NCBI GenBank assembly: GCA_965242605.1
Contig: CBDESS010000004.1
Span: 321,157 to 385,156, forward strand
DNA from: an uncultured Candidatus Binatia bacterium
Lineage (GTDB): Bacteria; Desulfobacterota; Binatia; Bin18
DNA: 64,000 bases
Reading direction: 5' to 3'
Below the pieces are notes generated by a model. The model was not told the origin of the DNA and made no database searches. It was given only the letters and a program-made list of their open reading frames with translations. The translations under genes were made by a program, and so were the position numbers. This document shows, piece after piece, positions 11,828 through 40,130 of the stretch. The first letter of the stretch is position 1. Each line of letters starts with the position of its first letter.

Positions 11828-12133
11828 ATGGGAGATTTCATCAAAGTCGCCCAGAGGAGTGATATCCCGGACGGCGGGGGGAAGTGCGTTGAGGTCGAAG
11901 ACAAGCAGATCGCCATCTTCCAGGTCGAGGGCGAGTATTACGCTATTGACAATATCTGCCCCCACCAGGGCGGCCCGCTGGACGAGGGCGAACTTGACGG
12001 CACGACCGTGATCTGCCCCTGGCACGGCTGGGAATACAATGTGACGACCGGCGAGAACCTGGACGACCCGGACGTGAAACAAGACACCTACACGGTCAAA
12101 CTTGACGGCGACGACATTCTGCTTGAAGTCTGA
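11828..12133 (+). CDS. Rieske [2Fe-2S] ferredoxin (NirD-like)
   Basis: CPHQGG and CPWHG Rieske ligands; GGAGG RBS. Confidence 0.92.
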   Translation: MGDFIKVAQRSDIPDGGGKCVEVEDKQIAIFQVEGEYYAIDNICPHQGGPLDEGELDGTTVICPWHGWEYNVTTGENLDDPDVKQDTYTVKLDGDDILLEV

Positions 12134-12160
12134 ACAAACCGAACGGGGGCGAAGACGGCC

Positions 12161-13249
12161 ATGACTGCGCTGTTTGACATCATGCACGCCGAAGACTACG
12201 AACAGGTGGTCTTTTGCGCCGACCGCTCGGCCGGACTCAAGGCGATCATCGCCATCCACGACACGACCCTGGGGCCGGCCCTGGGCGGGATGCGCCGGCG
12301 GGCCTATACGACTGAGGCCGAAGCCGTCACCGACGCCCTGCGGCTGGCCAAGGCCATGACTTACAAGGCCGCGCTGGCCGGGCTGGACTACGGCGGCGGC
12401 AAGGCGGTGCTGATTGCCGAGCGTCCCGTCACCGAGGCGCAACGAGAGGTACTGTTCCGCGCCCTGGGCCGCTCAATTGAATCGCTGGCCGGCCACTACA
12501 TCCCAACCGAAGACATGGGCACCTCGACCGTGGATATTGAACGAGTGCGCAAAGAGAGCCGCTTTGGCGTTGGCCGGGAAGAAGTCTTTGGCGGCGGCGG
12601 CGACCCCTCAGAGATGACAGCCTGGGGCATCTTCTGCGGCCAGCGGGCGTGTCTCGAAGAGCTGGACGGCACGGCCGACTTCGGGGGCAAGACCGTGGCC
12701 CTGCCCGGTCTGGGCAAGGTCGGCTATCCGCTGGCCCGCCACGTGCACCAGGCCGGAGCGCGGCTGATTGTGGCCGATGTGGACGCCAGCCGCACCCGGC
12801 AGGCCGAGGCCGACCTCCAGGCCCGGGTGGTCGGCCCCCAGGACATTTACAGCCAGGAGTGCGACATCCTGGCCCCGTGCGCCGCGGGCGGCCTGTTTCA
12901 CAGCCAGACCATTCCCCACCTGCGCTGCCGGATCATTGCCGGCGGGGCCAACAACCAACTGGTGAGCGACGAGGACGGCGACGCCCTGTCCGACCGGGGC
13001 ATTCTGTACGCGCCCGATTTCGCCATCAACGCCGGCGGCCTCATCAATGTTGCTGACGAACTCGGCCCCGGCGGCTACCGGCGTGAGCGGGCCCAGGCCA
13101 AAACCGAAACCATCTATACCACGCTCAAAACGTTGTTTGCCGAGGCTAGGCAACGCAACATCCCCGCCCATCGTCTGGCCGTCACCCTGGCCCAGGAACG
13201 CATCCGGGCGGTGCGGGAGTTGCGCCGCATGAACGCCGCCCCGGCATAA
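12161..13249 (+). CDS. ldh: Leu/Phe/Val dehydrogenase
   Basis: IAIHDTTLGPALGGMR, LAKAMTYKAALAGLDYGGGKAV, GLGKVG, IIAGGANNQL, YAPDFAINAGG. Confidence 0.9.
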   Translation: MTALFDIMHAEDYEQVVFCADRSAGLKAIIAIHDTTLGPALGGMRRRAYTTEAEAVTDALRLAKAMTYKAALAGLDYGGGKAVLIAERPVTEAQREVLFRALGRSIESLAGHYIPTEDMGTSTVDIERVRKESRFGVGREEVFGGGGDPSEMTAWGIFCGQRACLEELDGTADFGGKTVALPGLGKVGYPLARHVHQAGARLIVADVDASRTRQAEADLQARVVGPQDIYSQECDILAPCAAGGLFHSQTIPHLRCRIIAGGANNQLVSDEDGDALSDRGILYAPDFAINAGGLINVADELGPGGYRRERAQAKTETIYTTLKTLFAEARQRNIPAHRLAVTLAQERIRAVRELRRMNAAPA

Positions 13250-23907: not shown

Positions 23908-25706
23908 TCTTCACCTTCGGGGAGGGCGAACACAAACAGGGCGCTGCCTTTGGACGCCAGCGGGTTCTCGCCAACCAGAGATACGGCCAAGCCACCGCCG
24001 CCGCTCGGAATCGCTACATATTGACGCCCGTTGACCTTGTAGGTCGCCGGCTGGCCACGCACGGTTGAGCCGGTCTGGAACTTCCACAGCAGCTCGCCCG
24101 TGGTGTCGTCAAACGCCAGCGCATAGCCCTTTTGGTCGCCGGTAAACACCAAGCCGCCGGCGGTGGCCATCGTGCCGCCGACCAGGGGATAGTCGTCTTT
24201 GTAGCGCCACTTGACCGCTCCGCTCGACACGTCAATCGCGGACAGGTGGCCGTAGGACGACCCGTCGTCGGCCTGCGTCTTGCCAGGCCCGCCGCCCCAG
24301 AAGGGGATGCCCTGAATAAAGGTGGCCGCGCCTTTGGTCATCTGCCAGCAACTCTCGACTACCGGCAGGTACATGTACTTGGTGATGGGGCTGTAAGCCG
24401 CGGTCCACGAGCCGTTTTTGCCGCCGACCGAGCCGGGGCAGATAAAGTTGCCGGCCTCCTTGGTCGGGACGTAGTCGGGGTTCACAATTGGACGGCCTTG
24501 CTCGTCAAGGCCCTTGGCCCAGTTGAGCTGTTCCACATACTGCGAGCCATGCAGAAACTCGCCCGAGCTGCGGTCAAGCACATACAGGTAGCCGTTGCGG
24601 TTGGGCTGGGCCAGGGCTTTGACGGTCTTCCCGCTCCGCTCAACGTCAATCAGAAACAGGTCGGTATTCCCGTCGTAGTCCCAGATGTCGTGTGGCGTGA
24701 ACTGGAAATACCACTTGATCGCGCCGGTTTCCGGCTCCAGGGCCAGCACCGAGTCGGTGTACAGATTATCCCCCTCGCGGACATCGCCGTTCCAGTCGGG
24801 GGACGGGTTGCCGGTCGCCCAGAAAATCAGGTCCTGCTCAGGGTCATAGGAGCCGGTTATCCAGGTCGGCCCGCCGCCGATTTTCCACGAGTCGCCGGAC
24901 CAGGTTTCGGACCCGGGCTCATCCGCGCCCGGGGTGGTATAGCGACGCCACTTGCGCTCTCCGGTCTGCGCGGCGTAGGCGTCCACATAGCCCCGAATGC
25001 CGTACTCGCCACCGGCAATTCCGACGATGACCTTGTCCTTGACGATGAGGGGCGCGGCGGTTGCGCTATAGCCCTTGCGGTAATCGTCGATCTCGGTCTG
25101 CCAGACCAGGGTACCGGTCTGGGCCTGGAGGGCGACGAGGCGGGCGTCGAGGGTGGCCATAAAGACTGTGTCGCCGCTGATCGCCACGCCCCGGTTGCCG
25201 GGGCCGCAGCACACCCGCATATCGCCCGGCAGGGGGTGGTCATAGCGCCACAGCATCTCGCCCGTTTCGGCATTCAGCGCATACACATGGTTGAAGGCGG
25301 CCGTCATGTACATGATGCCGTCAGCCACAACCGGCGAGGCCTGGAACTGGGCCGGAACCCCGGTTTGAAACATCCACGCCGCCTGGAGTTTTTGCACATT
25401 GGCGCGGTTGATATCGGTCAGCGGGCTGAAGCGGGTGCTGTCATAGCTGCCGCCGTACATCAGCCAGGCCGAGGGGTCTTGGGTGCCCTTGAGCAGGCGG
25501 GCGTGGGTAACTGGCTTAAAATCACCGAACTGGGTCGCACCGTTTTGGGCCGGCGCTGCTGGGGCCGAGGCTGGGGCGGCAGCCGGGGTCGGCTCAGGTG
25601 TGTCGGCTCTTCCGCCTGCGGCAGACGCCTCACCTGCGACAACAGGCAAGAGCGTGCTGGCGGCGACCGTGCTGCGCAGCAGCTTTTGCAGACCTGTGTA
25701 TGGCAT
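23904..25706 (-). CDS. PQQ-dependent alcohol dehydrogenase 1, lanthanide-type motif
   Basis: RFSPLTDIN, vicinal CCG, GGEYGIRG, TGNPSP, HDIWDYDG, PQQ W-motifs; AGGAGG RBS. Confidence 0.93.
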   Translation of the reverse strand: MPYTGLQKLLRSTVAASTLLPVVAGEASAAGGRADTPEPTPAAAPASAPAAPAQNGATQFGDFKPVTHARLLKGTQDPSAWLMYGGSYDSTRFSPLTDINRANVQKLQAAWMFQTGVPAQFQASPVVADGIMYMTAAFNHVYALNAETGEMLWRYDHPLPGDMRVCCGPGNRGVAISGDTVFMATLDARLVALQAQTGTLVWQTEIDDYRKGYSATAAPLIVKDKVIVGIAGGEYGIRGYVDAYAAQTGERKWRRYTTPGADEPGSETWSGDSWKIGGGPTWITGSYDPEQDLIFWATGNPSPDWNGDVREGDNLYTDSVLALEPETGAIKWYFQFTPHDIWDYDGNTDLFLIDVERSGKTVKALAQPNRNGYLYVLDRSSGEFLHGSQYVEQLNWAKGLDEQGRPIVNPDYVPTKEAGNFICPGSVGGKNGSWTAAYSPITKYMYLPVVESCWQMTKGAATFIQGIPFWGGGPGKTQADDGSSYGHLSAIDVSSGAVKWRYKDDYPLVGGTMATAGGLVFTGDQKGYALAFDDTTGELLWKFQTGSTVRGQPATYKVNGRQYVAIPSGGGGLAVSLVGENPLASKGSALFVFALPEGEE

Positions 25707-25724
25707 AGGTTTTTCCTCCTGTGG

Positions 25725-25764
25725 GCGACAAAGCCCCGACTGAATGCGCTCAGGGCTTTGTCGC
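25725..25764. promoter_or_regulatory. 12-bp perfect inverted repeat just upstream of the ADH1 RBS, at the array boundary
   Basis: GCGACAAAGCCC (25725-25736) and GGGCTTTGTCGC (25753-25764). Confidence 0.6.
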
Positions 25765-25839
25765 GGTCAGGCACAAAAGGCAGTCCTCGGACGGGAAGAG
25801 CGCAAGGGGCAACGGCCCCCCCGCCCCAGGAGACCCCCG

Positions 25840-27843
25840 TCAGTCCTCTGGATCTGGATCGAAGTGGGTGCTTTCCTCCTGGTTCTTGCCCGCACTGGGG
25901 ATGCTGCTCCGCCTCCCGCTGGCCAGGTTGTTATACCCCCCGCTCACGCTCGCATGAAAGCCACGCGCTTCGTTGTCGAGACCCCCAACCACACTCGCAT
26001 GCCAGCCGCTCGCCAAGTTGTTTTTCCCCCCAAGCACGCTCGCAAACGTTTCACTCGCTTCGTTGTTGTCGCCCCCAACCACGCTCGTTAAGTTCACCGT
26101 GCTCGCGTTGTTCCGGCCCCCAAGCACGCTCGCATAATTCCCCTCGATAGTGTTCCCTAAGCCCACCACCAAGCCACCGTGACCGCTGTACACATGCTCG
26201 GGGCCAATCACCACGTTGTGCGAGCCGGTACGATCATTGCGGCCCTCGGTCCGGGTCAGGGGGGTCGCCTCACCAAGAAGGTCAAAGGTGCCATCTTCGT
26301 TGTAGCCCACGATCAGGTTGCCGAGCCCGTTGGTGATAGAGGTTGACTCGAAGCTGTTCCCGTTGCGGATGTGGATGTTGCAGCCCTCGAAGACCACATC
26401 CGCCGTGGTCTGGCCGGTCACGGCTTCGGTGGTCAGACAGGCAGGCCAGAGGTGGCGGAAGTCAGCCACGCCGGTCACGGTCACGCCGCTGCCCCCGCTC
26501 ACAACGCTGCCCTTAGTGCTGGTAGCCATGTTCAGCAGACCCCCGAGCACGCTGGCAGCTTTGCTGCTGGCTATGTTCCGATCACCCCCGTTCACGCTGG
26601 CCGCCCGACCGCTGGCAGCGTTGTTCGAGCCCCCGCTCACGCTGGCGTGAGAGCCACGGGCCCTGTTGTTGATACCCCCGCTCACGCTGGCGTTATAATT
26701 CTCGGCCCTGTTCAACCGGCCCCCGCTCACGCTGGCGTTATTGAAGCTGGCCGTGTTGACATGGCCCCCGCTCACGCTGGCCTCCCTACCGCTGGCCCTG
26801 TTGCCCCCGCCGCCGCTCACGCTGGCGTTAGAACCACTGGCCTCGTTGCTCGAGCCCCCGCTCACGCTGGACGTCCCGCCGCTGGCCTCGTTGCGATGGC
26901 CCCCGCTCACGCTGGCTTTCCAACCACTGGCCTCGTTGCTCGAGCCCCCGCTCACGCTGGCTCTAGAACCGCTGGCCTCGTTGCGATAGCCCCCGCTCAC
27001 GCTGGCCTGAGGGCCACTGGCCGTGTTCTCCTGGCCCCCGCTCACGCTCGACCTGCTGCTAGTCGCCGTGTTGACATCGCCCCCGCTCACGCTGGACGCC
27101 CAGCCACTGGCCGTGTTCCGACGGCCGCCGCTCACGCTGGCATACCCACCGCTGGCCTCGTTTTCTACGCCCCCGCTCACGCTGGCCTGATGGTTGCTGG
27201 CCGTGTTGCGATAGCCCCCGCTCACACTGGCCGCCCAGCCAGCGGCCGTGTTGGCCTGGCCGCCGCTCACGCTGGACATCCCGCCAGTGGCCGTGTTGCG
27301 ATAGCCCCCGCTCACACTGGCCGCCCAGCCAGCGGCCGCGTTCTGCCGACCCCCGCTCACGCTGGCCATATTGGTATGGCGGGAGATAACGTTATCCCAC
27401 CCCGCCACCAACCCCCCAGAACTGGGGTACTGATGATAATTCCCGACCACCAGGTTGTGCGAACCGCCCCGCCGGGCCGTGTCCGCCGTCGGGTGGGTGT
27501 TCGCCTCGTTGTAGCCGATAATCAGGTTGCCCAGCCCCAGCGGCTCGGAGCGCCACTCGTTGTCGACGGTCCGCCCTTTATAGGTCACGCCCGACCCGCT
27601 GCGGATATGGACATTGGCCCCGGTGAACACCACATGCGGGCCTTTGAGGCCGTGGTAGGTGCTCGTGGCCGCAGTCTCAATGACCTGAATGTAACGGGTC
27701 AGGGGAGTCAGCCTGTTGACTTCGGCCTGTAAGGCCGCCACCTGGGTCGCTAGCTCCGCCAGGGTGGGCGTCTGGCCCCAGCCCGGACTGGCAGCCAGAA
27801 GGACGGTACACAGAGACGAACAACAGAGGATAAGACGCTGCAT
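25840..27843 (-). CDS. Secreted 15-aa-repeat (SVSGGxxNxAxG) beta-solenoid-like protein, copy A (667 aa)
   Basis: GAAAGGAG RBS; MQRLILCC signal peptide, short coiled coil, GLGNLIIGYNE module, 15-aa repeats, second GNLIVGYNED module, ends STHFDPDPED. Confidence 0.88.
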   Translation of the reverse strand: MQRLILCCSSLCTVLLAASPGWGQTPTLAELATQVAALQAEVNRLTPLTRYIQVIETAATSTYHGLKGPHVVFTGANVHIRSGSGVTYKGRTVDNEWRSEPLGLGNLIIGYNEANTHPTADTARRGGSHNLVVGNYHQYPSSGGLVAGWDNVISRHTNMASVSGGRQNAAAGWAASVSGGYRNTATGGMSSVSGGQANTAAGWAASVSGGYRNTASNHQASVSGGVENEASGGYASVSGGRRNTASGWASSVSGGDVNTATSSRSSVSGGQENTASGPQASVSGGYRNEASGSRASVSGGSSNEASGWKASVSGGHRNEASGGTSSVSGGSSNEASGSNASVSGGGGNRASGREASVSGGHVNTASFNNASVSGGRLNRAENYNASVSGGINNRARGSHASVSGGSNNAASGRAASVNGGDRNIASSKAASVLGGLLNMATSTKGSVVSGGSGVTVTGVADFRHLWPACLTTEAVTGQTTADVVFEGCNIHIRNGNSFESTSITNGLGNLIVGYNEDGTFDLLGEATPLTRTEGRNDRTGSHNVVIGPEHVYSGHGGLVVGLGNTIEGNYASVLGGRNNASTVNLTSVVGGDNNEASETFASVLGGKNNLASGWHASVVGGLDNEARGFHASVSGGYNNLASGRRSSIPSAGKNQEESTHFDPDPED

Positions 27844-27893
27844 CACGCGCTCCTTTCGACTCCCACAGGGGCAAGCGAGAATAGAATGGTGCA

Positions 27894-27965
27894 CCTGTAC
27901 TGTCATCCTGCCGGACTGTCAAGGCAGGGCCGGGGGTGGCTGGCCAGCCGGGTTGCTCCGGCAGG
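27894..27965 (-). promoter_or_regulatory. Sigma70-like promoter with operator-like palindrome, repeated before every array unit (copy A shown)
   Basis: Minus-strand TTGACA at 27922-27917, N17, TACAGG; CCTGCC-N10-GGCAGG brackets the -35. Equivalent -35 boxes at 28560, 30700, 32888, 35155, 37163, 37807 and 39946. Confidence 0.65.
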
Positions 27966-28049
27966 TGAAGCGGTCAGGCACGCAGGGCAGCCCCCGGACG
28001 GGGAGAGCGCGAGGGGCACGGCTCTTCGCCCCAGGAGACCCCAGCAGGG

Positions 28050-28489
28050 CTAGAGGTCGCTGCTGGCCGTCTGGTTCTTGCCCCCACTGATGCTGCTCTG
28101 CTTCCCGATCGCCGTGTTGTTGTGGCCCCCGCTCACGCTCGCATGGTCCCCCCGCGCTTCGTTCTCAGGTTGCCCAGCCCCAGAGGCTCGGAGCGCCACT
28201 TGTTGTCGACGGTCCGCCCTTTATTAGGTCACGCCCGACCCGCTGCGGATATGGACATTGGCCCCGGTGAACACCACAGGCGGGCCGTTGAGGCCGTGGT
28301 AGGTGCTCGTGGCCGCAGTCTCGATGACCTGAATGTAGCGGGTCGGGGGAGTCAGCTGTTGACTGCGGCCTGTAAGGCCGCCACCTGGGTCGCTAGCTCC
28401 GCCAGGGTAGGCGTTTGGCCCCAGCCCGGACTGGCAGTCAGCAGGACAGTACACAACGACGAACAACAGAGGATGAGCCGACGCGTCAC
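28050..28489 (-). pseudogene. Internally deleted array remnant R1
   Basis: ATG changed to ACG, 1-nt deletion in the AVNRLT codons, extra T creating a stop, and N-module (GLGNL) fused to the last repeats (ENEARGDH...TASSDL) at about 28165. Confidence 0.85.
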
Positions 28490-28714
28490 GCGCTCCTTTC
28501 GGCCCCCACAGGGGCAAGCGAGAACAGAACGGCGCGCCTGTACCGTCGTCCTGCCGGCCTGTCAAGGCAGGGCCGGGGGTGCCTGGCCAGCCGGGTTGCT
28601 CCGGCAGGCGAAGCGGTCAGGCACGCAGGGCTTTTTCACGGTCAGGCACAAAAGGCAGTCCTCGGACGGGAAGAGCGCAAGGGGCAACGGCTCCCCCGCC
28701 CCGGGAGACCCCCG

Positions 28715-30628
28715 TCAGTCCTCTGGATCTGGATCGAAGTGGGTGCTTTCCTCCTGGTTCTTGCCCGCACTGGGGATGCTGCTCCGCCTCCCGCTGGCCA
28801 GGTTGTTATACCCCCCGCTCACGCTCGCATGAAAGCCACGCGCTTCGTTGTCGAGACCCCCAACCACACTCGCATGCCAGCCGCTCGCCAGGTTGTTTTT
28901 CCCCCCAAGCACGCTCGCAAACGTTTCACTCGCTTCGTTGTTGTCGCCCCCAACCACGCTCGTTAAGTTCACCGTGCTCGCGTTGTTCCGGCCCCCAAGC
29001 ACGCTCGCATAATTCCCCTCGATAGTGTTCCCTAAGCCCACCACCAAGCCACCGTGACCGCTGTACACATGCTCGGGGCCAATCACCACGTTGTGCGAGC
29101 CGGTACGATCATTGCGGCCCTCGGTCCGGGTCAGGGGGGTCGCCTCACCAAGAAGGTCAAAGGTGCCATCTTCGTTGTAGCCCACGATCAGGTTGCCGAG
29201 CCCGTTGGTGATAGAGGTTGACTCGAAGCTGTTCCCGTTGCGGATGTGGATGTTGCAGCCCTCGAAGACCACATCCGCCGTGGTCTGGCCGGTCACGGCT
29301 TCGGTGGTCAGACAGGCAGGCCAGAGGTGGCGGAAGTCAGCCACGCCGGTCACGGTCACGCCGCTGCCCCCGCTCACAACGCTGCCCTTAGTGCTGGTAG
29401 CCATGTTCAGCAGACCCCCGAGCACGCTGGCAGCTTTGCTGCTGGCTATGTTCCGATCACCCCCGTTCACGCTGGCCGCCCGACCGCTGGCAGCGTTGTT
29501 CGAGCCCCCGCTCACGCTGGCGTGAGAGCCACGGGCCCTGTTGTTGATACCCCCGCTCACGCTGGCGTTATAATTCTCGGCCCTGTTCAACCGGCCCCCG
29601 CTCACGCTGGCGTTATTGAAGCTGGCTGTGTTGACATGGCCCCCGCTCACGCTGGCCCACCTACCGGTGGCCCTGTTCCCACTGCCCCCGCTCACGCTGG
29701 ACGCCTCGCCGCTGGCCCTGTTGGACCGGCCCCCGCTCACGCTGGCGTTAGACCTACTGGCGCCGTTGTTCGAGCCCCCGCTCACGCTGGCCGCCCAGCC
29801 GCTGGCCGTGTTGTCGGACCCCCCGCTCACGCTGGCCGCCCGGCCGCTGGCTATGTTGCGCGATCCCCCGCTCACGCTGGCGTCACTGGTGCTGGCCGTG
29901 TTGTACCGGCCCCCGCTCACGCTGGCCGCCCAGGCACTGGCCACATTCCCCCCACCCCCGCTCACGCTGGCGTTATAACCACTGGCCGTGTTCCGAAAGC
30001 CTCCGCTCACGCTGGCGTGATTGTTGCTGGCCGTGTTGTACCGGCCCCCGCTCACGCTGGCCGCCCAGCCGCTGGCCGTGTTCCAATGGCCCCCGCTCAC
30101 GCTGGCCGCCCAGTTAGCGGCCGTGTTGGCCTGGCCGCCGCTCACGCTGGCCGCATTGGTATGGCGGGAGATGACGTTATCATACCCCGCCACCAGCCCC
30201 CCAGAACTGGGGTACTGATGCGTACTCCCAATCACCAGGTTGTGCGAACCGCCCCGCCGGGCCGTGTCCGCCGTCGGGTGGGTGTTCGCCTCGTTGTAGC
30301 CGATAATCAGGTTGCCCAGCCCCAGCGGCTCGGAGCGCCACTCGTTGTTGACGGTCCGTCCTTTATAGGTCACGCCCGACCCGCTGCGGATATGGACATT
30401 AGCCCCGGTGAACACCACATGCGGGCCTTTGAGGCCGTGGTAGGTACTGGTGGCCGCAGTCTCAATGACCTGAATGTAACGGGTCAGGGGAGTCAACCTG
30501 TTGACTTCGGCCTGTAAGGCCGCCACCTGGGTCGCTAGCTCCGCCAGGGTGGGTGTCTGGCCCCAGCCCGGACTGGCAGCCAGCAGGACAGTACACAGAG
30601 ACGAACAACAGAGAATAAGACGCCGCAT
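28715..30628 (-). CDS. Secreted 15-aa-repeat protein, copy B (637 aa)
   Basis: Same architecture; 3' ~1 kb nearly identical to copy A; 30 aa (2 repeats) shorter than A. Confidence 0.88.
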   Translation of the reverse strand: MRRLILCCSSLCTVLLAASPGWGQTPTLAELATQVAALQAEVNRLTPLTRYIQVIETAATSTYHGLKGPHVVFTGANVHIRSGSGVTYKGRTVNNEWRSEPLGLGNLIIGYNEANTHPTADTARRGGSHNLVIGSTHQYPSSGGLVAGYDNVISRHTNAASVSGGQANTAANWAASVSGGHWNTASGWAASVSGGRYNTASNNHASVSGGFRNTASGYNASVSGGGGNVASAWAASVSGGRYNTASTSDASVSGGSRNIASGRAASVSGGSDNTASGWAASVSGGSNNGASRSNASVSGGRSNRASGEASSVSGGSGNRATGRWASVSGGHVNTASFNNASVSGGRLNRAENYNASVSGGINNRARGSHASVSGGSNNAASGRAASVNGGDRNIASSKAASVLGGLLNMATSTKGSVVSGGSGVTVTGVADFRHLWPACLTTEAVTGQTTADVVFEGCNIHIRNGNSFESTSITNGLGNLIVGYNEDGTFDLLGEATPLTRTEGRNDRTGSHNVVIGPEHVYSGHGGLVVGLGNTIEGNYASVLGGRNNASTVNLTSVVGGDNNEASETFASVLGGKNNLASGWHASVVGGLDNEARGFHASVSGGYNNLASGRRSSIPSAGKNQEESTHFDPDPED

Positions 30629-30833
30629 TACGCGCTCCTTTCGGCCCCCACAGGGGCAAGCGAGAATAGAAGCGCACCTGTACTGCCTTCCTGCCGGACT
30701 GTCAAAGCAGGGCCGGGGGTGGCTGGCCAGCCGGGTTGCTCCGGCAGGTGAAGCGGTCAGGCACCCAGGGCAGACACCGGACGGGAAGAGCGCAAGGGGC
30801 ATGGCCCCCTCGCCCCGGGAGACCCCAGCAGGG

Positions 30834-32813
30834 CTAGAGGGCGTCGCCGTCAACGGTGGCCGTCTGGTTCCTGCCCCCGCTGATGCTGCTCCGCTTCCCG
30901 ATCGCCGTGTTGCCCTGCCCCCCGCTCACACTCGAATAGTCCCCCCGCGCTTCGTTGCCCTGCCCCCCGCTCACGCTCGAATGATCCCCGCTCGCCTCGT
31001 TGTCTTTGCCTCCAACCACGCTCGCATAATCCCCGCTGATGGTGTTCCCTGAACCCACCACCAAGCCACTGTGACCCGAGTAGTCGTGCTCGGGACCAAT
31101 CACCACATTGTGCGAGCCGGTGCGATCAAGGATGTCATCTGCATCTTCGTTGTAGCCCACGATCAGGTTGCCGCGCCCGTTGGTGGTAGCGGTCCGCTTG
31201 GTAGTATGCTCGTTGCGGATGTGGACATTGCAGCCCTCAAAGACTACATCATCTTTGGGCTGGTTGGCCACGGCTTCAGTCGTCAGGCAGGCCAGAGAGG
31301 GCGGAAGTTCGGACACGCTGACCACGGTCACGTCTTGGCCGCCGCTGATGCTGGTCGCGCTGCTGGTCGCCGTGTTGCCCCGACCGCCGAGCACGCTGGC
31401 CGCCCAGCCACCGGCCCTGTTGTTGCTCCCCCCGCTCACATTGGAGAAATCACCTCTGGCCACGTTCGTCACGCCCCCGCTCACATTGGAGCTACCACCG
31501 ATGGCCTCGTTGTTCGAGCCCCCGCTCACACTGGAGTGACGACCCCGGGCCGTGTTGCGGCCACCCCCGCTCACACTGGAGTAATGACCCACGGCCCTGT
31601 TCGTCCAGCCCCCGCTCACATTGGAGTAATCACCTCTGGCCACGTTCGTCACGCCCCCGCTCACACTGGAGCTACCACCGATGGCCTCGTTGTTCGAGCC
31701 CCCGCTCACACTGGAGTGACGACCCCGGGCCGTGTTGCGGCCACCCCCGCTCACACTGGAGTAATGACCCACGGCCCTGTTCGTCCAGCCCCCGCTCACA
31801 TTGGAGTAATCACCTCTGGCCACGTTCGTCACGCCCCCGCTCACACTGGAGCTACCACCGATGGCCTCGTTGTTCGAGCCCCCGCTCACACTGGAGTGAC
31901 GACCCCGGGCCGTGTTGCGGCCACCCCCGCTCACACTGGAGTAATGACCCACGGCCCTGTTCGTCCAGCCCCCGCTCACATTGGAGTAATCACCTCTGGC
32001 CACGTTCGTCACGCCCCCGCTCACACTGGAGCCACCGCCGATGGCCTCGTTGCTGACACCCCCGCTCACGCTCGACGCGCTGCTAGTCGCCAAGTTGTTG
32101 CTACCCCCGCTCACACTGGACGCCCAACCACCGGTCCTGTTGCTGACACCCCCGCTCACACTGGACGCAGAGCCCCGGGCCTCGTTATTACGGCCCCCGC
32201 TGATGCTGGCCACCCCACCGATGGCTTGGTTACGACTGCCGCCGAGCACGCTGGTCGCCCAGCCTGTGGCCGCGTTCAGATGGCCCCCGCTCACGCTGGC
32301 CGCAAAGCCAGCGGCCGCGTTCAGATGGCCCCCGCTCACGCTGGCCGCAGTGGTATGGCGGAAGATGACGTTATCATGCCCCGCCACCAGCCCCCCAGAA
32401 CTGGGGTACTGATGCGCACTCCCAATCACCAGGTTGTGCGAGCCACCCCGCCTAGCCGTATCCGCCGTCGGGTGGGTGTTCGCCTCGTTGTAGCCGATAA
32501 TCAGGTTGCCCAGCCCCAGCGGCTCGGAGCGCCACTCGTTGTTGACGGTCCGTCCTTTATAGGTCACGCCCGACCCGCTGCGGATATGGACATTGGCCCC
32601 GGTGAACACCACATGCGGGCCTTTGAGGCCGTGGTAGGTACTGGTGGCCGCAGTCTCAATGACTTGAATGTAGCGGGTCAGCGTGTCGACCTTGGTCTGC
32701 AAGGCCGCCATCTGGGTCGCTAGCTCCGCCAGGGTAGGCGTCTGGCCCCAGCCCGGACTGGCAGCCAGCAGGATAGCACCCAGAGACGAACAACAGAGGA
32801 TAAGACGCTGCAT
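30834..32813 (-). CDS. Secreted 15-aa-repeat protein, copy C (659 aa)
   Basis: Same architecture; type-2 middle module (SELPPSLACLTTEAVANQPKDD); ends TATVDGDAL. Confidence 0.88.
   Translation of the reverse strand: MQRLILCCSSLGAILLAASPGWGQTPTLAELATQMAALQTKVDTLTRYIQVIETAATSTYHGLKGPHVVFTGANVHIRSGSGVTYKGRTVNNEWRSEPLGLGNLIIGYNEANTHPTADTARRGGSHNLVIGSAHQYPSSGGLVAGHDNVIFRHTTAASVSGGHLNAAAGFAASVSGGHLNAATGWATSVLGGSRNQAIGGVASISGGRNNEARGSASSVSGGVSNRTGGWASSVSGGSNNLATSSASSVSGGVSNEAIGGGSSVSGGVTNVARGDYSNVSGGWTNRAVGHYSSVSGGGRNTARGRHSSVSGGSNNEAIGGSSSVSGGVTNVARGDYSNVSGGWTNRAVGHYSSVSGGGRNTARGRHSSVSGGSNNEAIGGSSSVSGGVTNVARGDYSNVSGGWTNRAVGHYSSVSGGGRNTARGRHSSVSGGSNNEAIGGSSNVSGGVTNVARGDFSNVSGGSNNRAGGWAASVLGGRGNTATSSATSISGGQDVTVVSVSELPPSLACLTTEAVANQPKDDVVFEGCNVHIRNEHTTKRTATTNGRGNLIVGYNEDADDILDRTGSHNVVIGPEHDYSGHSGLVVGSGNTISGDYASVVGGKDNEASGDHSSVSGGQGNEARGDYSSVSGGQGNTAIGKRSSISGGRNQTATVDGDAL
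31441..32040. repeat. Near-perfect 180-bp (4 x 45 nt) tandem repeat, about 3.3 copies, inside copy C
   Basis: Sequence lines starting at 31501, 31681 and 31861 are identical, as are 31561, 31741 and 31921. Confidence 0.95.
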
Positions 32814-33010
32814 TACGCGCTCCTTTCGGCCCCTACAGGGGCAAGCGAGAATAGAATGGTGTGTTCATAACTGTCGTCCTGCCGGGCCGTCAAGGCAGGG
32901 CCGGGGGTGGCTGGCCAGCCGGGTTGCTCCGGCAGGCGAAGCGGTCAGGCACGCAGGGCAGCCCCCGGACGGGGAGACCGGAAGGGGCACGGCTGGAGAC
33001 CCCAGCAGGG

Positions 33011-35080
33011 CTAGAGGTCGCTGCTGGCCGTCTCGTTCTTGCCCCCGCTGATGCTGCTCCGCTTCCCGATCGCCGTGTTGTTGTGGCCCCCGCTCACACT
33101 CGCATGGTCCCCCCGCGCTTCGTTCTCCTGCCCTCCGCTCACACTCGCATGGTCCCCCCGCGCTTCGTTCTCCTGCCCCCCGCTCACACTCGCATGGTCC
33201 CCCCGCGCTTCGTTCTCCTGCCCCCCGCTCACACTCGAATAATCCCCCCGCGCTTCGTTCTCCTGCCCTCCGCTCACACTCGAATAATCCCCGCTCGCCT
33301 CGTTGTCTTTGCCCCCAACCACGCTCGAGTACTCCCCGCTGATGATGTTCCTCAGACCCACCACCAAGCCACTGTGACTCGAATATTCGTGCTCAGGGCC
33401 AATCACCACGTTGTGCGAACCCGTGCGGTCAAAGACGTTATCTTCATTGTAGCCCACGATCAGGTTGCCGAGCCCGTTGGTGGTAGTGGTCCGCTTGGTG
33501 CTATGCCCGTTGCGGACGTGGACGTTGCAGCCCTCAAAGACCACATCATCTGTGGTCTGGCCGGTCACGGCTTCGGTGGTCAGACAGGCAGGCCAGAGGT
33601 GGCGGAAGTCAGCCACGCCGGTCACAGTCACGCCGCTGCCCCCGCTCACAACGCTGCCCTTAGTGCTGGTAGCCATGTTCAGCAGACCCCCGAGCACGCT
33701 GGCAGCTTTGCTGCTGGCTATGTTCCGATCACCCCCGTTCACACTGGCCGCCCGACCGCTGGCGCCGTTGTTCGAGCCCCCGCTCACGCTGGCGTGAGAG
33801 CCACGGGCCCTGTTGTTGATACCCCCGCTCACGCTGGCGTTATAATTCTCGGCCCTGTTCAACCGGCCCCCGCTCACGCTGGCACTATTGAAGCTAGCCG
33901 TGTTGGCATTGCCCCCGCTCACGCTGGCCTCCCTACCGCTGGCCGTGTTGCCATGGCCCCCGCTCACGCTGGCCCTCCAACCGCTGGCCCTGTTGCGATA
34001 GCCCCCGCTCATGCTCGAGTGAGTGCCACTGGCCCTGTTCTCCTGGCCCCCGCTCACACTGGACGCCCAGCCGCTAGACGTGTTGCCACGGCCCCCGCTC
34101 ACGCTGGCATCCCCACCGCTGGCCACATTGTGCGAACCGCCGCTCACGCTGGACGACCCGCCGCTGGCTATGTTGCCCGCTCCCCCGCTCACGCTGGACG
34201 ACCCGCCGCTGGCCTCGTTGCGAGAGCCCCCGCTCACACTGGAGCTATGACCGCTGGCCTCGTTTTCTACGCCCCCGCTCACGCTGGTGTGATGGTTGCT
34301 GGCCGTGTTGCGGAGCCCCCCGCTCACGCTCGACACGCTGCTAGTCGCCGTGTTCTCCCGGCCCCCGCTCACGCTGGCCGCCCAGGCACTGGCCACATTG
34401 TGCGCACCCCCGCTCACGCTGGCCGCCCTACCGCTGGCCGTGTTGTACTCGCCTCCGCTCACGCTGGACAACGGGCCGCTGGCCGTGTTCCAATGGCCCC
34501 CGCTCGCGCTGGACGCCCAGCCACTGGCCACATTGTGCGCACCCCCGCTCACGCTGGCCGCCCAGTTAGCGGCCGTGTTGGCCTGGCCGCCGCTCACGCT
34601 GGCCGCATTGGTATGGCGGGAGATGACGTTATCATACCCCGCCACCAGCCCCCCAGAACTGGGGTACTGATGCGTACTCCCAATCACCAAGTTGTGCGAA
34701 CCGCCCCGCCGGGCCGTGTCCGCCGTCGGGTGGGTGTTCGCCTCGTTGTAGCCGATAATCAGGTTGCCCAGCCCCAGCGGCTCGGAGCGCCACTCGTTGT
34801 TGACGGTCCGTCCTTTATAGGTCACGCCCGACCCGCTGCGGATATGGACATTGGCCCCGGTGAACACCACATGCGGGCCGTTGAGGCCGTGGTAGGTGCT
34901 CGTGGCCGCAGTCTCGATGACTTGAATGTAGCGGGTCAGGGGAGTCAACCTGTTGACTGCGGCCTGTAAGGCCGCCACCTGGGTCGCTAGCTCCGCCAGG
35001 GTAGGCGTCTGGCCCCAGCCCGGACTGGCAGCCAGCAGGACAGCACACAGAGACGAACAACAGAGGATAAGACGCCGCAT
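33011..35080 (-). CDS. Secreted 15-aa-repeat protein, copy D (689 aa)
   Basis: Type-1 middle module (FRHLWPACLTTEAVTGQTT) with expanded C-terminal GQENEARGD repeats; ends TASSDL. Confidence 0.88.
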   Translation of the reverse strand: MRRLILCCSSLCAVLLAASPGWGQTPTLAELATQVAALQAAVNRLTPLTRYIQVIETAATSTYHGLNGPHVVFTGANVHIRSGSGVTYKGRTVNNEWRSEPLGLGNLIIGYNEANTHPTADTARRGGSHNLVIGSTHQYPSSGGLVAGYDNVISRHTNAASVSGGQANTAANWAASVSGGAHNVASGWASSASGGHWNTASGPLSSVSGGEYNTASGRAASVSGGAHNVASAWAASVSGGRENTATSSVSSVSGGLRNTASNHHTSVSGGVENEASGHSSSVSGGSRNEASGGSSSVSGGAGNIASGGSSSVSGGSHNVASGGDASVSGGRGNTSSGWASSVSGGQENRASGTHSSMSGGYRNRASGWRASVSGGHGNTASGREASVSGGNANTASFNSASVSGGRLNRAENYNASVSGGINNRARGSHASVSGGSNNGASGRAASVNGGDRNIASSKAASVLGGLLNMATSTKGSVVSGGSGVTVTGVADFRHLWPACLTTEAVTGQTTDDVVFEGCNVHVRNGHSTKRTTTTNGLGNLIVGYNEDNVFDRTGSHNVVIGPEHEYSSHSGLVVGLRNIISGEYSSVVGGKDNEASGDYSSVSGGQENEARGDYSSVSGGQENEARGDHASVSGGQENEARGDHASVSGGQENEARGDHASVSGGHNNTAIGKRSSISGGKNETASSDL
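33087..33292. repeat. Near-perfect 45-bp tandem repeat (about 4 copies) in the 3' end of copy D
   Basis: CCCCGCGCTTCGTTCTCCTGCCC[CT]CCGCTCACACTCG... repeated head-to-tail, encoding SVSGGQENEARGD[HY][AS]. Confidence 0.9.
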
Positions 35081-35288
35081 TACGCGCTCCTTTCGGCCCC
35101 CACAGGGGCAAGCGAGAATAGAATGGTACGTTCATAACTGTCGTCCTGCCGGACTGTCAAGGCAGGGCCGGGGGTGGCTGGCCAGCCGGGTTGCTCCGGC
35201 AGGCGAAGCGGTCAGGCACGCAGGGCAAACACCGGACGGGAAGAACGCGAGGGGCACGGCCCCCTCGCCCCGGGACACTCCGGCAGGG

Positions 35289-37088
35289 CTAGAGGGCGTC
35301 GCCGTCAACGGTGGCCGTCTGGTTCTTGCCCCCGCTGATGCTGCTCCGCTTCCCGATCGCCGTGTTGCCCTGCCCCCCGCTCACACTCGAATAGTCCCCC
35401 CGCGCTTCGTTGTCCTGCCCCCCGCTCACGCTCGAATGATCTCCGCTCGCCTCGTTGTCTTTGCCTCCAACCACGCTCGCATGATCCCCGCTGATGGTGT
35501 TCCCTGAGCCCACCACCAAGCCACCGTGACCCGAGTAGTCGTGCTCGGGACCAATCACCACGTTGTGCGAGCCGGTGCGATCAAGGATGTCATCTGCATC
35601 TTCGTTGTAGCCCACGATCAGGTTGCCGCGCCCGTTGGTGGTAGCGGTCCGCTCGGTGGTATGCTCGTTGCGGATGTGGACATTGCAGCCCTCAAAGACT
35701 ACATCATCTTTGGGCTGGTTGGCCACGGCTTCAGTCGTCAGGCAGGCCAGAGAGGGCGGAAGTTCGGACACGCTGACCACGGTCACGTCTTGGCCGCCGC
35801 TGATGCTGGTCGCGCTGCTGGTCGCCGTGTTGCCCCGGCCGCCGAGCACGCTGGCCGCAAAGCCACCGGCCCTGTTCCCATGGCCGCCGACCACACTGGA
35901 GCTATTACCCAGGGCCCTGTTGATATGGCCGCCGCTCACGCTGGACCAAGGACCCTGGGCCGTATTGGTGGTACCCCCGCTCACGCTGGACGCCCAGCCA
36001 CCAGCCCTGTTGTTGTACCCCCCGCTCACACTGGACGTCCCACCGCGGGCCGTGTTGTTATACCCCCCGCTCACACTGGAGTCAATACCCAGGGCCTTGT
36101 TGGTCTTGCCGCCGCTCACGCTGGACCAAGGACCCTGGGCCGTATTGGTGGTACCCCCGCTCACGCTGGACGCCCAGCCGCGGGCCGTGTTGTTGTACCC
36201 CCCGCTCACACTGGACGCCCCACCGCGGGCCGTGTTGTTGTACCCCCCGCTCACACTGGACGCGCTGCTAGTCGCCAAGTTGGTGTGGCCCCCGCTCACA
36301 CTGGAGTCAGAACCCAGGGCCTTGTTGGTGTGGCCCCCGCTCACACTGGAGTGATAACCAATGGCCCTGTTGTTGCCACCCCCGCTCACACTGGCCTCCC
36401 GGCCAACGGCCCTGTTATTGCCACCCCCGCTCACACTGGACGCCGGGCCCCTGGCCTCGTTATTACGGCCCCCGCTGATGCTGGCCACCCCACCGATGGC
36501 TTGGTTACGACTGCCGCCGAGCACGCTGGTCGCCCAGCCTGTGGCCGCGTTCAGATGGCCCCCGCTCACGCTGGCCGCAAAGCCAGCGGCCGCGTTCAGA
36601 TGGCCCCCGCTCACGCTGGCCGCAGTGGTATGGCGGAAGATGACGTTATCATGCCCCGCCACCAGCCCCCCAGAACTGGGGTACTGATGCGCACTCCCAA
36701 TCACCAAGTTGTGCGAGCCACCCCGCCGGGCCGTATCCGCTGTCGGGTGGGTGTTCGCCTCGTTGTAGCCGATAATCAGGTTGCCCAGCCCCAGCGGCTC
36801 GGAGCGCCACTCGTTGTTGACGGTCCGCCCTTTATAGGTCACGCCCGACCCGCTGCGGATGTGGACATTGGCCCCGGTGAACACCACATGCGGGCCTTTG
36901 AGGCCGTGGTAGGTACTGGTGGCCGCAGTCTCAATGACCTGAATGTAACGGGTCAGCGTGTCGACCTTGGTCTGCAAGGCCGCCATCTGGGTCGCTAGCT
37001 CCGCCAGGGTAGGCGTCTGGCCCCAGCCCGGACTGGCAGTCAGCAGGACAGCACACAGAGACGAACAACAGAGGATAAGACGCTGCAT
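35289..37088 (-). CDS. Secreted 15-aa-repeat protein, copy E (599 aa)
   Basis: Type-2 middle module; ends TATVDGDAL; exactly 60 aa (4 repeats) shorter than C. Confidence 0.88.
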   Translation of the reverse strand: MQRLILCCSSLCAVLLTASPGWGQTPTLAELATQMAALQTKVDTLTRYIQVIETAATSTYHGLKGPHVVFTGANVHIRSGSGVTYKGRTVNNEWRSEPLGLGNLIIGYNEANTHPTADTARRGGSHNLVIGSAHQYPSSGGLVAGHDNVIFRHTTAASVSGGHLNAAAGFAASVSGGHLNAATGWATSVLGGSRNQAIGGVASISGGRNNEARGPASSVSGGGNNRAVGREASVSGGGNNRAIGYHSSVSGGHTNKALGSDSSVSGGHTNLATSSASSVSGGYNNTARGGASSVSGGYNNTARGWASSVSGGTTNTAQGPWSSVSGGKTNKALGIDSSVSGGYNNTARGGTSSVSGGYNNRAGGWASSVSGGTTNTAQGPWSSVSGGHINRALGNSSSVVGGHGNRAGGFAASVLGGRGNTATSSATSISGGQDVTVVSVSELPPSLACLTTEAVANQPKDDVVFEGCNVHIRNEHTTERTATTNGRGNLIVGYNEDADDILDRTGSHNVVIGPEHDYSGHGGLVVGSGNTISGDHASVVGGKDNEASGDHSSVSGGQDNEARGDYSSVSGGQGNTAIGKRSSISGGKNQTATVDGDAL

Positions 37089-37295
37089 TACGCGCTCCTT
37101 TCGGCCCCTACAGGGGCAAGCGAGAATAGAATGGTGTGTTCATAACTGTCGTCCTGCCGGGCCGTCAAGGCAGGGCCGGGGGTGGCTGGCCAGCCGGGTT
37201 GCTCCGGCAGGCGAAGCGGTCAGGCACGTAGGGCAGCCCCCGGACGGGGAGACCGGAAGGGGCACGGCTCTTCGCCCCAGGAGACCCCAGCAGGG

Positions 37296-37734
37296 CTAGA
37301 GGTCGCTGCTGGCCGTCTCGTTCTTGCCCCCGCTGATGCTGCTCTGCTTCCCGATCGCCGTGTTGTTGTGGCCCCCGCTCACACTCGCATGGTCCCCCCG
37401 CGCTTCGTTCTCAGGTTACCCAGCCCCAGAGGCTCGGAGCGCCACTCGTTGTTGACGGTCCGCCCTTTATGCGTCACGCCCGACCCGCTGCGGATATGGA
37501 CATTGGCCCCGGTGAACACCACAGGCGGGCCGTTGAGGCCGTGGGAGGTACTGGTGGCCGCAGTCTCGATGACCTGAATGTAGCGGGCCAGGGGAGTCAG
37601 CTGTTGACTGCGGCCTGTAAGGCCGCCACCTGGGTCGCTAGCTCCGCCAGGGTAGGCGTCTGGCCCCAGCCCGGACTGGCAGCCAGCAGGACAGTACACA
37701 ACGACGAACAACAGAGGATGAGCCGACGCGTCAC
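37296..37734 (-). pseudogene. Internally deleted array remnant R2
   Basis: Same ACG start, same 1-nt deletion and same GLGNL/ENEARGDH junction (about 37411) as R1. Confidence 0.85.
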
Positions 37735-37940
37735 GCGCTCCTTTCGGCCCCCACAGGGGCAAGCGAGAACAGAACGGCGCACCTGTACTGTCTCGTCCTG
37801 CCGGACTGTCAAGGCAGGGCCGGGGGTGGCTGGCCAGCCGGGTTGCTCCGGCAGGCGAAGCGGTCAGACACGCAGGGCAGACACCGGACGGGAAGAGCGC
37901 AAGGGGCATGGCCCCCTCGCCCCAGGAGACCCCAGCAGGG

Positions 37941-39866
37941 CTAGAGGTCGCTGCTGGCCGTCTGGTTCTTGCCCCCGCTGATGCTGCTCCGCTTCCCGAT
38001 CGCCGTGTTGCCCTGCCCCCCGCTCACACTCGAATAGTCCCCCCGCGCTTCGTTGTCCTGCCCCCCGCTCACGCTCGAATGATCCCCGCTCGCCTCGTTG
38101 TCTTTGCCTCCAACCACGCTCGCATAATCCCCGCTGATGGTGTTCCCTGAACCCACCACCAAGCCACTGTGACCCGAGTAGTCGTGCTCGGGACCAATCA
38201 CCACGTTGTGCGAGCCGGTGCGATCAAGGATGTCATCTGCATCTTCGTTGTAGCCCACGATCAGGTTGCCGCGCCCATTGGTGGTAGCGGTCCGCTTGGT
38301 GGTATGCTCGTTGCGGATGTGGACATTGCAGCCCTTGAAGACTACATCATCTTTGGGCTGGTTGGCCACGGCTTCGGTCGTCAGGCAGGCCAGAGATGGC
38401 GGAAGTTCGGACACGCTGACCACGGTCACGTCTTGGCCGCCGCTGACGCTGGTCGCGCTGCTGGTCGCCGTGTTGCCCCGACCGCCGAGCACGCTGGACG
38501 CCCAGCCACCGGCCCTGTTCCCATTGCCGCCGACCACACTGGAGCTATTACCCAGGGCCCTGTTGACAGCGCCGCCGCTCACGCTGGACCAAGGACCCTG
38601 GGCCGTATTGGTGGTACCCCCGCTCACGCTGGACGCCCCGCCAATGGCCCTGTTGTTGCCACCCCCGCTCACACTGGACGCCTCACCGCGGGCCGTGTTG
38701 TTGTGCCCCCCGCTCACACTGGACGCCCCACCGCGGGCCGTGTTGTTGTACCCCCCGCTCACACTGGACGCGCTGCTAGTCGCCAAGTTGTTGTCACCCC
38801 CACTCACACTGGACGCCCCGCCACCGGCCCTGTTGTTCGAGCCCCCGCTCACGCTGGACGACGTACCGCGGGCCTCGTTGCCGCCACCCCCGCTCACACT
38901 GGAGTGACGACCCAGGGCCCGGTTGCTGGCACCCCCGCTCACACTGGAGTAACGACCCAGGGCCCGGTTCGTCCAGCCCCCGCTCACATTGGAGAGAACA
39001 CCTCTGGCCCTGTTCATCCAGCCCCCGCTCACACTGGAGCCACCGCCGCTGGCCACGTTGTTGACACCCCCGCTCGCACTGGAGTTACCGCCGCGGGCCT
39101 CGTTGTTGGCACCCCCGCTCACGCTCGACGCGCTGCTAGTCGCCAAGTTGTTGTTACCCCCGCTCACACTGGACGCCCAGCCACCGGTCCTGTTGCTGGC
39201 ACCCCCGCTCACACTGGACGCAGAGCCCCGGGCCGCGTTGTTCTGGCCCCCGCTGATGCTGGCCACCGGACCGATGGCCTGGTTGCGATGGCCGCCGAGC
39301 ACGCTGGCCGCATAGCCAGTGGCCGCGTTCAGATGGCCCCCGCTCACACTGGCCGCCCAGCCAGCGGCCGCGTTCTGCCGACCCCCGCTCACGCTGGCCG
39401 CATTGGTATGGCGGAAGATGACGTTATCACTCCCCGCCACCAGCCCCCCAGAACTAGGGTACTGATGATAATTCCCGACCACCAAGTTGTGCGAACCGCC
39501 CCGCCTAGCCGTATCCGCCGTCGGGTGGGTGTTCGCCTCGTTGTAGCCGATAATCAGGTTGCCCAGCCCCAGCGGCTCGGAGCGCCACTTGTTGTCAACG
39601 GTCCGCCCTTTATGCGTCACGCCCGACCCGCTGCGGATATGGACATTGGCCCCGGTGAACACTACATGCGGGCCTTTGAGGCCGTGGTAGGTGCTCGTGG
39701 CCGCAGTCTCGATGACTTGAATGTAGCGGGTCAGCGTGTCGACCTTGGTCTGCAAGGCCGCCATCTGGGTCGCTAGCTCCGCCAGGGTAGGCGTTTGGCC
39801 CCAGCCCGGACTGGCAGCCAGCAGGAAAGCACACAGAGACGAACAACAGAGGATAAGACGCCGCAT
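37941..39866 (-). CDS. Secreted 15-aa-repeat protein, copy F (641 aa)
   Basis: Type-2 middle module combined with a TASSDL end; first unit in transcription order. Confidence 0.88.
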   Translation of the reverse strand: MRRLILCCSSLCAFLLAASPGWGQTPTLAELATQMAALQTKVDTLTRYIQVIETAATSTYHGLKGPHVVFTGANVHIRSGSGVTHKGRTVDNKWRSEPLGLGNLIIGYNEANTHPTADTARRGGSHNLVVGNYHQYPSSGGLVAGSDNVIFRHTNAASVSGGRQNAAAGWAASVSGGHLNAATGYAASVLGGHRNQAIGPVASISGGQNNAARGSASSVSGGASNRTGGWASSVSGGNNNLATSSASSVSGGANNEARGGNSSASGGVNNVASGGGSSVSGGWMNRARGVLSNVSGGWTNRALGRYSSVSGGASNRALGRHSSVSGGGGNEARGTSSSVSGGSNNRAGGGASSVSGGDNNLATSSASSVSGGYNNTARGGASSVSGGHNNTARGEASSVSGGGNNRAIGGASSVSGGTTNTAQGPWSSVSGGAVNRALGNSSSVVGGNGNRAGGWASSVLGGRGNTATSSATSVSGGQDVTVVSVSELPPSLACLTTEAVANQPKDDVVFKGCNVHIRNEHTTKRTATTNGRGNLIVGYNEDADDILDRTGSHNVVIGPEHDYSGHSGLVVGSGNTISGDYASVVGGKDNEASGDHSSVSGGQDNEARGDYSSVSGGQGNTAIGKRSSISGGKNQTASSDL

Positions 39867-40130
39867 TACGCGCTCCTTTCGGCCCCCACAGGGACAAGCG
39901 AGAATAGAATAGAATGGTGCGTTCATAACTGTCTTCCTGCCGGGTTGTCAAGGCGGGGCAGAGGATGGCTTGGCGGCCGGCGGGTTCCCTCTCCTCCTCA
40001 AGACAGAACCCACGCTATTGAATCCACCCGTATCTCCGGCCCTCCCCCTCCGGGGAAGAGACAAGTCCAACCCAGCCTTGCGCCTTGGGGCTGGCCTCTG
40101 TATATGAGGACAGCCGGCGGAGCTCCAGCC

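Follow-up and report, generated by a model that had tools for sequence, protein, structure and literature searches.

Repeated promoter-leader cassettes in a Binatia beta-roll gene array, with predicted housekeeping-type promoters and an inherited palindrome over the -35 box

The intergenic modules of a tandem array of secreted beta-roll protein genes in an uncultured Candidatus Binatia bacterium are, in the reading that we consider likely, copies of an ancestral promoter-leader cassette, and the palindrome (dyad) spanning their -35 boxes goes back to the founder sequence and most likely does not bind a regulator. According to this reading, the modules of about 200 bp would have been copied from one ancestral intergenic cassette during duplication of the array. 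Since the duplication unit starts approximately 45-75 bp upstream of the -35 box, the cassettes would have been carried along with each copy. Each cassette would comprise, in order, a GC-rich hairpin after the preceding stop codon, the promoter, an ATTCT repeat, a short hairpin by the ribosome-binding site and the start codon. The promoter would be of the primary-sigma type (GCCTTGAC, 17-18 nt, TAnnnn), and the pyrimidine-rich ATTCT repeat would coincide with the first bases of the predicted transcript. The left arm of the dyad would correspond to the conserved flank of the -35 box and the right arm to part of the moderately conserved spacer, the whole dyad having been multiplied by duplication from the founder. 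With a cassette of its own, each intact gene could probably be transcribed independently. The arrangement is an ordinary one, because it is set by where the duplication boundaries lie.

The analysed window (the whole stretch of 64,000 nucleotides; contig C4:321157-385156) belongs to a genome of 3.64 Mb with 62% GC in 4 contigs. The array and its modules occupy positions 25840-39957 of the window on the minus strand, in the order F-R2-E-D-C-B-R1-A. The intact genes encode secreted proteins of 600-700 aa in which many 15-aa SVSGGxxNxASGxxA repeats are combined with a signal peptide, a conserved N-terminal module and a short coiled coil, with Pfam matches to UspA1-type head repeats and the left-handed beta-roll. 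R1 and R2 are pseudogenes; both begin with ACG, not ATG, and GTTCT units replace ATTCT. A PQQ-dehydrogenase cluster lies on one side of the array and the operon of alternative complex III (ACIII) on the other, and the flanking genes (PQQ dehydrogenases, a solute-binding protein, a beta-propeller protein and ACIII) are metabolic. Between the stop codon of gene A and the start of the PQQ dehydrogenase gene at 25706, a strong 11-bp stem (CGACAAAGCCC...GGGCTTTGTCG) was observed at 25715-25775 on the minus strand, directly preceding the ribosome-binding site of the downstream dehydrogenase gene. This stem might terminate transcription of gene A or form a leader structure for the PQQ dehydrogenase gene.

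The closest related genome, that of a sister species (G004, a chromosome of 3.62 Mb), was the only match from the homologue scan of genome contigs. It contains an orthologous array adjoining ACIII together with dispersed copies. In the genome of the window itself, four dispersed paralogs were identified (C2:668039, C1:1231084, C1:1233283 and C4:289849). The array locus was also found in sponge metagenomes, and Binatota are known as methylotrophs associated with sponges (PMC9999580, PMC8262859). A wider metagenome homologue search recovered 36 loci with a protein identity of only 36-55%, whose upstream DNA could not be aligned, and a search of an annotated plasmid collection gave no match. At one locus of the sister species (L021, G004:C1:1488000-1507000), the third array unit duplicates the whole upstream region of the first unit (around 11977-12250, minus strand), a copy that extends into the divergent actA gene and includes its start codon and first codons. 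The two species thus differ in their duplication boundaries, which argues that the arrays expanded at least partly independently.

Eight modules, all on the minus strand, were located by pattern search and alignment. Module A (27844-28049) extends from the stop codon of the R1 remnant to the ATG of gene A and illustrates the common organization. A GC-rich, terminator-like hairpin without a U tract follows the stop codon (28013-28032). It is followed by an upstream arm CCTGCCGGA (27957-27965), a 12-bp palindrome GGCTGGCCAGCC (27938-27949) and the 22-bp dyad CCTGCC-TTGACAGTCC-GGCAGG (27907-27928), which encloses the -35 hexamer TTGACA (27917-27922). The -10 hexamer (27894-27899), two ATTCT units at the predicted transcript start (27878-27887), a leader hairpin (27859-27872) and the Shine-Dalgarno sequence GAAAGGAG (27850-27857) come next, followed by the ATG at 27841-27843. 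The post-stop hairpin is stronger in the modules of B, D and R2. In module C, an 11-nt deletion within 32937-33010 takes out the 5' half of the hairpin seen in the other modules, so that transcripts of D seem more likely to run on into C. A terminator scan made no call in the modules; the hairpins after the stop codons have no U tract and thus lack the signature of an intrinsic terminator.

All eight modules contain TTGAC[AG] inside CCTGCC-N10-GGCAGG, and in six of them the 6-N10-6 repeat is perfect, at 27907-27928 (A), 28550-28571 (R1), 32878-32899 (C), 35145-35166 (D), 37153-37174 (E) and 37797-37818 (R2). One mismatch was found in B (30690-30711, CCTGCT) and one in F (39936-39957, CCCGCC), as a first-pass annotation of this DNA had reported. 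The same annotation had noted a further inverted arm and a palindrome in every copy but F, and the module alignment agrees. The upstream arm CCTGCCGGA, complementary to TCCGGCAGG at 27907-27915 in module A, lies about 46 nt upstream in every module except F; the palindrome GGCTGGCCAGCC is likewise present in all modules but F, where the homologous place holds the non-palindromic GGCCGCCAAGCC, and is altered to GGCTGGCCAGGC in R1. Homology of F with the other copies had been described as ending just beyond the -35 box. This was not upheld, as a weak similarity (about 70%) to the other modules runs approximately 40 nt further upstream. The upstream arm falls immediately outside the stretch with homology to F, in junction-specific sequence, and therefore probably came with the duplication junction and not with the ancestral promoter.

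The -35 box is TTGACA or TTGACG in all eight modules, close to the sigma-70 consensus TTGACA, and the spacer to the -10 box measures 17 nt (A, R1, B), 18 nt (C, D, E, F) or 19 nt (R2), all within the sigma-70 range of 16-19 nt around an optimum of 17 nt. Upstream of the 16S rRNA gene and approximately 20 tRNA genes of the same genome, a recurrent TTGAC(a/t)-N17/18-TAnnnn pattern (GCCTTGAC-N17/18-TAnnnn) was observed. The -10 boxes of these housekeeping genes often have no final T, such as TACAGA in an rRNA promoter and TATGAG, TATGAC, TAAGAC and TAGAAC in tRNA promoters. The housekeeping promoters of this lineage are thus characterized by a near-consensus -35 box, spacers of 17-18 nt and a -10 box in which TA is all that is strongly kept. 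The array -10 boxes, TACAGG and TATGAA, likewise keep TA and lack the final T. A generic sigma-70 scan makes no call at these positions because it demands a T at position 6 of the -10 box. Sigma-54, sigma-32 and ECF-type promoters were also compared by eye with consensus motifs, and none appeared to fit.

A position weight matrix (PWM) was built from 22 rRNA and tRNA promoters of the same genome, picked by eye, which themselves range from 9.5 to 17.7 bits. With this matrix, D and F score 17.7 bits, C and E 15.6 bits, and A, R1 and B 11.6 bits; a score of at least 15 bits is reached at 1.5e-5 of genome positions. R2 fails the matrix at the scored spacings of 17-18 nt, its own spacer being 19 nt long because of a 2-nt GA insertion (R2 promoter, 37782-37812). 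The promoter match is beyond chance, unlike the palindrome. The proposal that the duplicated unit is a self-contained transcription cassette gains good computational support from this match to the rRNA and tRNA promoter style and from the fact that dispersed paralogs and the sister species retain the elements. The proposal that the pseudogenes retain their promoters holds in so far as the elements are still there, with the qualification that R2, with its 19-nt spacer, shows the only clearly degraded spacer. Retention by the pseudogenes shows only that they are young.

Two -10 alleles had been proposed, and the alignment confirms them. TACAGG is found in A (27894-27899), R1 (28537-28542), B (30677-30682) and R2 (37782-37787), and TATGAA (also read as TTATGA) in C (32864-32869), D (35131-35136), E (37139-37144) and F (39922-39927). 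The 17-nt spacing assigned to the TACAGG group is correct for A, R1 and B and has to be amended for R2. The -10 patch forms a sharp island of divergence, with 64% identity compared with about 93% in the surrounding context, and this divergence reflects two or three haplotypes mixed mosaically among the copies. In module B, for instance, TACAGG is combined with GTAATG, the start context of C-F. TATGAA is common to F and its positional ortholog in the sister species, which makes it probably the ancestral -10 box. A box similar to TACAGG, TACAGA, is found at a dispersed paralog and at an rRNA promoter, and both alleles also occur in contigs of other strains. TATGAA (C, D, E, F) is probably ancestral and predicted to be the stronger allele, and TACAGG (A, B, R1, R2) is probably derived and predicted to be the weaker one. 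Given the predicted gap of 4-6 bits between the two alleles, differential expression of the copies is plausible.

Ten distinct promoters, drawn from the array, the four dispersed paralogs and the sister species, were aligned. Columns without any variation are CCTTG.C in the -35 region, the T of the -10 TA (with the adjacent A in at least 90%) and the Shine-Dalgarno block; the CC preceding the -35 hexamer and its TTGAC are invariant or nearly so, and the promoters become unalignable further upstream. The four dispersed paralogs and the sister species all preserve CCTTGAC, the TA of the -10 box, the leader hairpin and the ribosome-binding site. The leader hairpin lies directly 5' of the Shine-Dalgarno sequence (27859-27872 in A; for example 35096-35109 and 39882-39895 elsewhere, minus strand) and reads GCCCC-UGUR-GGGGC in most copies. 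Every paralog, and the sister species too, can form a stem of 4-6 bp, which is weakened in the copy of gene A. Its stems change by compensatory substitution (GCCCC/GGGGC, GCCUC/GAGGC, GUCCC/GGGAC and GAUCCC/GGGAUC); across the ten promoters, 86% of its cells are paired and two pairs have changed on both sides. The hairpin was also observed at loci L021, L045 and L052. At position 39894, the leader hairpin of F contains a G.U wobble, where all other strains have a G-C pair.

Comparison with known systems places the modules among primary-sigma (sigma-70/SigA-type) promoters carried in tandem duplications, or "gene accordions". The array shares with these the consensus-like -35 TTGACA, the 17-18 nt spacer and a -10 box starting with TA, as well as a promoter-leader cassette that lies wholly inside the duplicated unit and is present once per copy. 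It departs from typical primary-sigma promoters in a -10 box without the canonical final T, a trait that many rRNA and tRNA promoters of its own genome share, and from gene accordions in the two sharply different -10 patches of its copies. The leader hairpin resembles the 5'-UTR stem-loops beside Shine-Dalgarno sequences that stabilise mRNA or tune translation, being a GC-rich hairpin of 4-6 bp placed 2-5 nt before the Shine-Dalgarno sequence with compensatory changes in the paralogs. Unlike those, it matches no curated family in Rfam.

Of the alternatives, a shared operator retains the most ground, and we regard it as improbable. The dyad, centred near -31, would be bound by a dimeric repressor that occludes the -35 box and co-regulates all copies, with the upstream arm and the 12-bp palindrome as auxiliary sites. 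Such an arrangement would recall -35-overlapping repressor operators (LexA, TetR or LacI-type dimeric HTH proteins; HrcA CIRCE, 9-N9-9), since in six copies a perfect 6+6 inverted repeat stands around the -35 box, where a bound protein would block RNA polymerase. Variation in natural populations is also compatible with an operator: the arms are invariant among strains, and the changes observed fall in the loop (F dyad in X7) or restore pairing (in X5, where G>A at 39955 makes the F dyad perfect). No arm-breaking variants were seen in the contigs aligned to module D. Furthermore, array promoters of the sister species carry inverted repeats over the -35 box that reuse CCTGCC/GGCAGG in another geometry, namely 8-N14-8 (CCTGCCTT/AAGGCAGG) and 5-N11-5 (CCGCC/GGCGG). 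About 1.2% of background sites match the 8-bp CCTGCCTT-N14-AAGGCAGG repeat, and this recurrence hints that some dyad may have been kept.

These points are outweighed by several others. All eight copies descend from a single founder and count as one evolutionary event, so nothing can be concluded from their agreement. Outside the array, 11% of 5445 TTGAC[AG] sites carry a perfect inverted repeat of at least 6 bp with a 3-16 nt spacer; together with the modest fold z-scores of whole-module RNAs (-2.35 and -1.5), this background makes the palindrome statistically unremarkable. A genome-wide search of the 3.64 Mb for CCTGCC-N10-GGCAGG, which the first-pass annotation had suggested as a check, recovered a single exact site beyond the array, where hexamer frequencies predict about 1, and the same motif with 1-2 mismatches did not exceed expectation in this genome. 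In the sister species, 15 non-array sites were counted against 11 for a control pattern, without excess. Neither genome thus offers a regulon, and no regulator gene was found among the genes flanking the array. A spacer scan from N0 to N24 gave peaks at N11 and N19 that proved unrelated, as they stem from a tandem coding repeat on contig C2. This repeat (C2:37214-55028, outside the window) comprises at least 20 copies of a unit of 393-405 bp, is apparently coding and presumably specifies a giant repeat protein.

The evolutionary behaviour of the dyad also differs from that expected of an operator. Across the ten homologous promoters, 62.7% of the dyad cells are paired and none of the six pairs has changed on both sides; four of the six depart by unpaired cells only. 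The dispersed paralogs have no inverted repeat over the -35 box, and the right arm is not kept in them. The arm spacing varies between the species (N10, N11, N14), which a dimer of fixed geometry would not tolerate, and the third arm belongs to the junction. The half-site centres lie 16 bp apart, equivalent to about 1.5 helical turns, which would place the half-sites on opposite faces of the helix and counts against an operator. The impression that the upstream block is unusually conserved was rejected, since among the seven internal modules its identity (93%) is matched by that of the adjacent N-terminal coding DNA (92.5%), with 93.5% in the dyad. A literature search for a CCTGCC/GGCAGG operator returned nothing relevant. 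Compared with known repressor operators, the array dyad lacks a cognate regulator gene nearby, further sites beyond expectation and conservation of the right arm. The shared dimeric regulator that had been proposed for the array is consequently not supported, in view of the single founder, the background frequency, the missing regulon and adjacent regulator gene, the lack of compensatory change and the junction-specific third arm. The palindrome, judged from its sequence, is one inherited founder element without sign of being a regulator site.

Somewhat less probable still is a contingency-like expression system, in which the dyad over the -35 box, kept in another geometry in the sister species, would act as a shared cis-element and switch all copies, and the two allele strengths together with a slippage-prone ATTCT tract would choose the surface beta-roll variant. 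The first-pass annotation had counted three AGAAT (ATTCT) units in the leader of F against two in most copies, and the alignment bears this out (F, 39901-39915, minus strand). Contigs tied to the F locus by its unique flank contain three units in the window genome, X1 and X2, two in X3, X4 and X5, and four in X7. The sequencing runs that contain the locus yield flat-depth contigs of up to 56-70 kb, and X1, X2 and X5 behave as DNA assemblies; run searches restricted to RNA yielded none that contains it. In common with contingency loci (Neisseria opa CTCTT, nadA TAAA and Haemophilus hif TA), the array places a pentanucleotide tandem repeat in the promoter-proximal leader of surface-protein paralogs, and its copy number (2, 3 or 4) is polymorphic among natural populations at one locus. 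Unlike those loci, its 2-4 units are far shorter than the tracts known for high-frequency slippage. No ON/OFF mechanism is evident, since the repeat lies downstream of the -10 box in non-coding sequence.

We give little credence to a promoter placed about 22 bp further downstream, with TATTCT within the ATTCT repeat as its -10 box and ATGACA or ACGACA as its -35 box, for which the repeat copy number would provide alternative -10 positions. The generic sigma-70 scan does call ATGACA-N17-TATTCT in module A, where the PWM gives 11.3 bits. The score falls to 5.1 bits in C-type modules, however, and this -35 box is not conserved among the copies. TATTCT is also missing from the dispersed paralogs and the sister species, in which CCTTGAC is invariant or nearly so.

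A role of the repeats in RNA appears slightly more doubtful again. Stems of the form CCUGCC(GGA)...(UCC)GGCAGG in read-through RNA would end, process or stabilise the upstream message as a 3' structure. A 9-bp long-range stem is indeed used in the minimum-free-energy fold, and the upstream arm and the 12-bp palindrome are missing from F, the sole unit without an array gene upstream. The varying geometry of the inverted repeats in the sister species, with loops of different length, would suit a stem better than a dimer of fixed geometry. Against this stand the modest z-scores given above, the missing U tract and the empty terminator scan, and the dyad shows no covariation and no Rfam match. Least probable, and very unlikely in our estimation, are internal promoters that persist as silent relics in an array transcribed mainly as one long message from F: the genes have no canonical terminators between them and the post-stop hairpin of module C is half deleted, but high-scoring promoter elements are kept in all intact genes, in strains as well, the dispersed paralogs, which are single-copy, have promoters of this type too, and the one clearly degraded spacer is confined to the pseudogene R2.

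The cassette reading guides the interpretation of the array. Each variable secreted beta-roll paralog probably has its own housekeeping-type promoter, in two predicted strength classes, which bears on whether the symbiont makes several variants simultaneously. Nothing in the palindrome itself indicates a new regulator. Should RNA data reveal expression that switches or differs between copies, attention would turn to the two -10 alleles and to the ATTCT polymorphism. The analysis also provides a first empirical view of promoter style in this uncultured Binatia lineage, with a strong -35 box and a -10 box reduced to TAnnnn.
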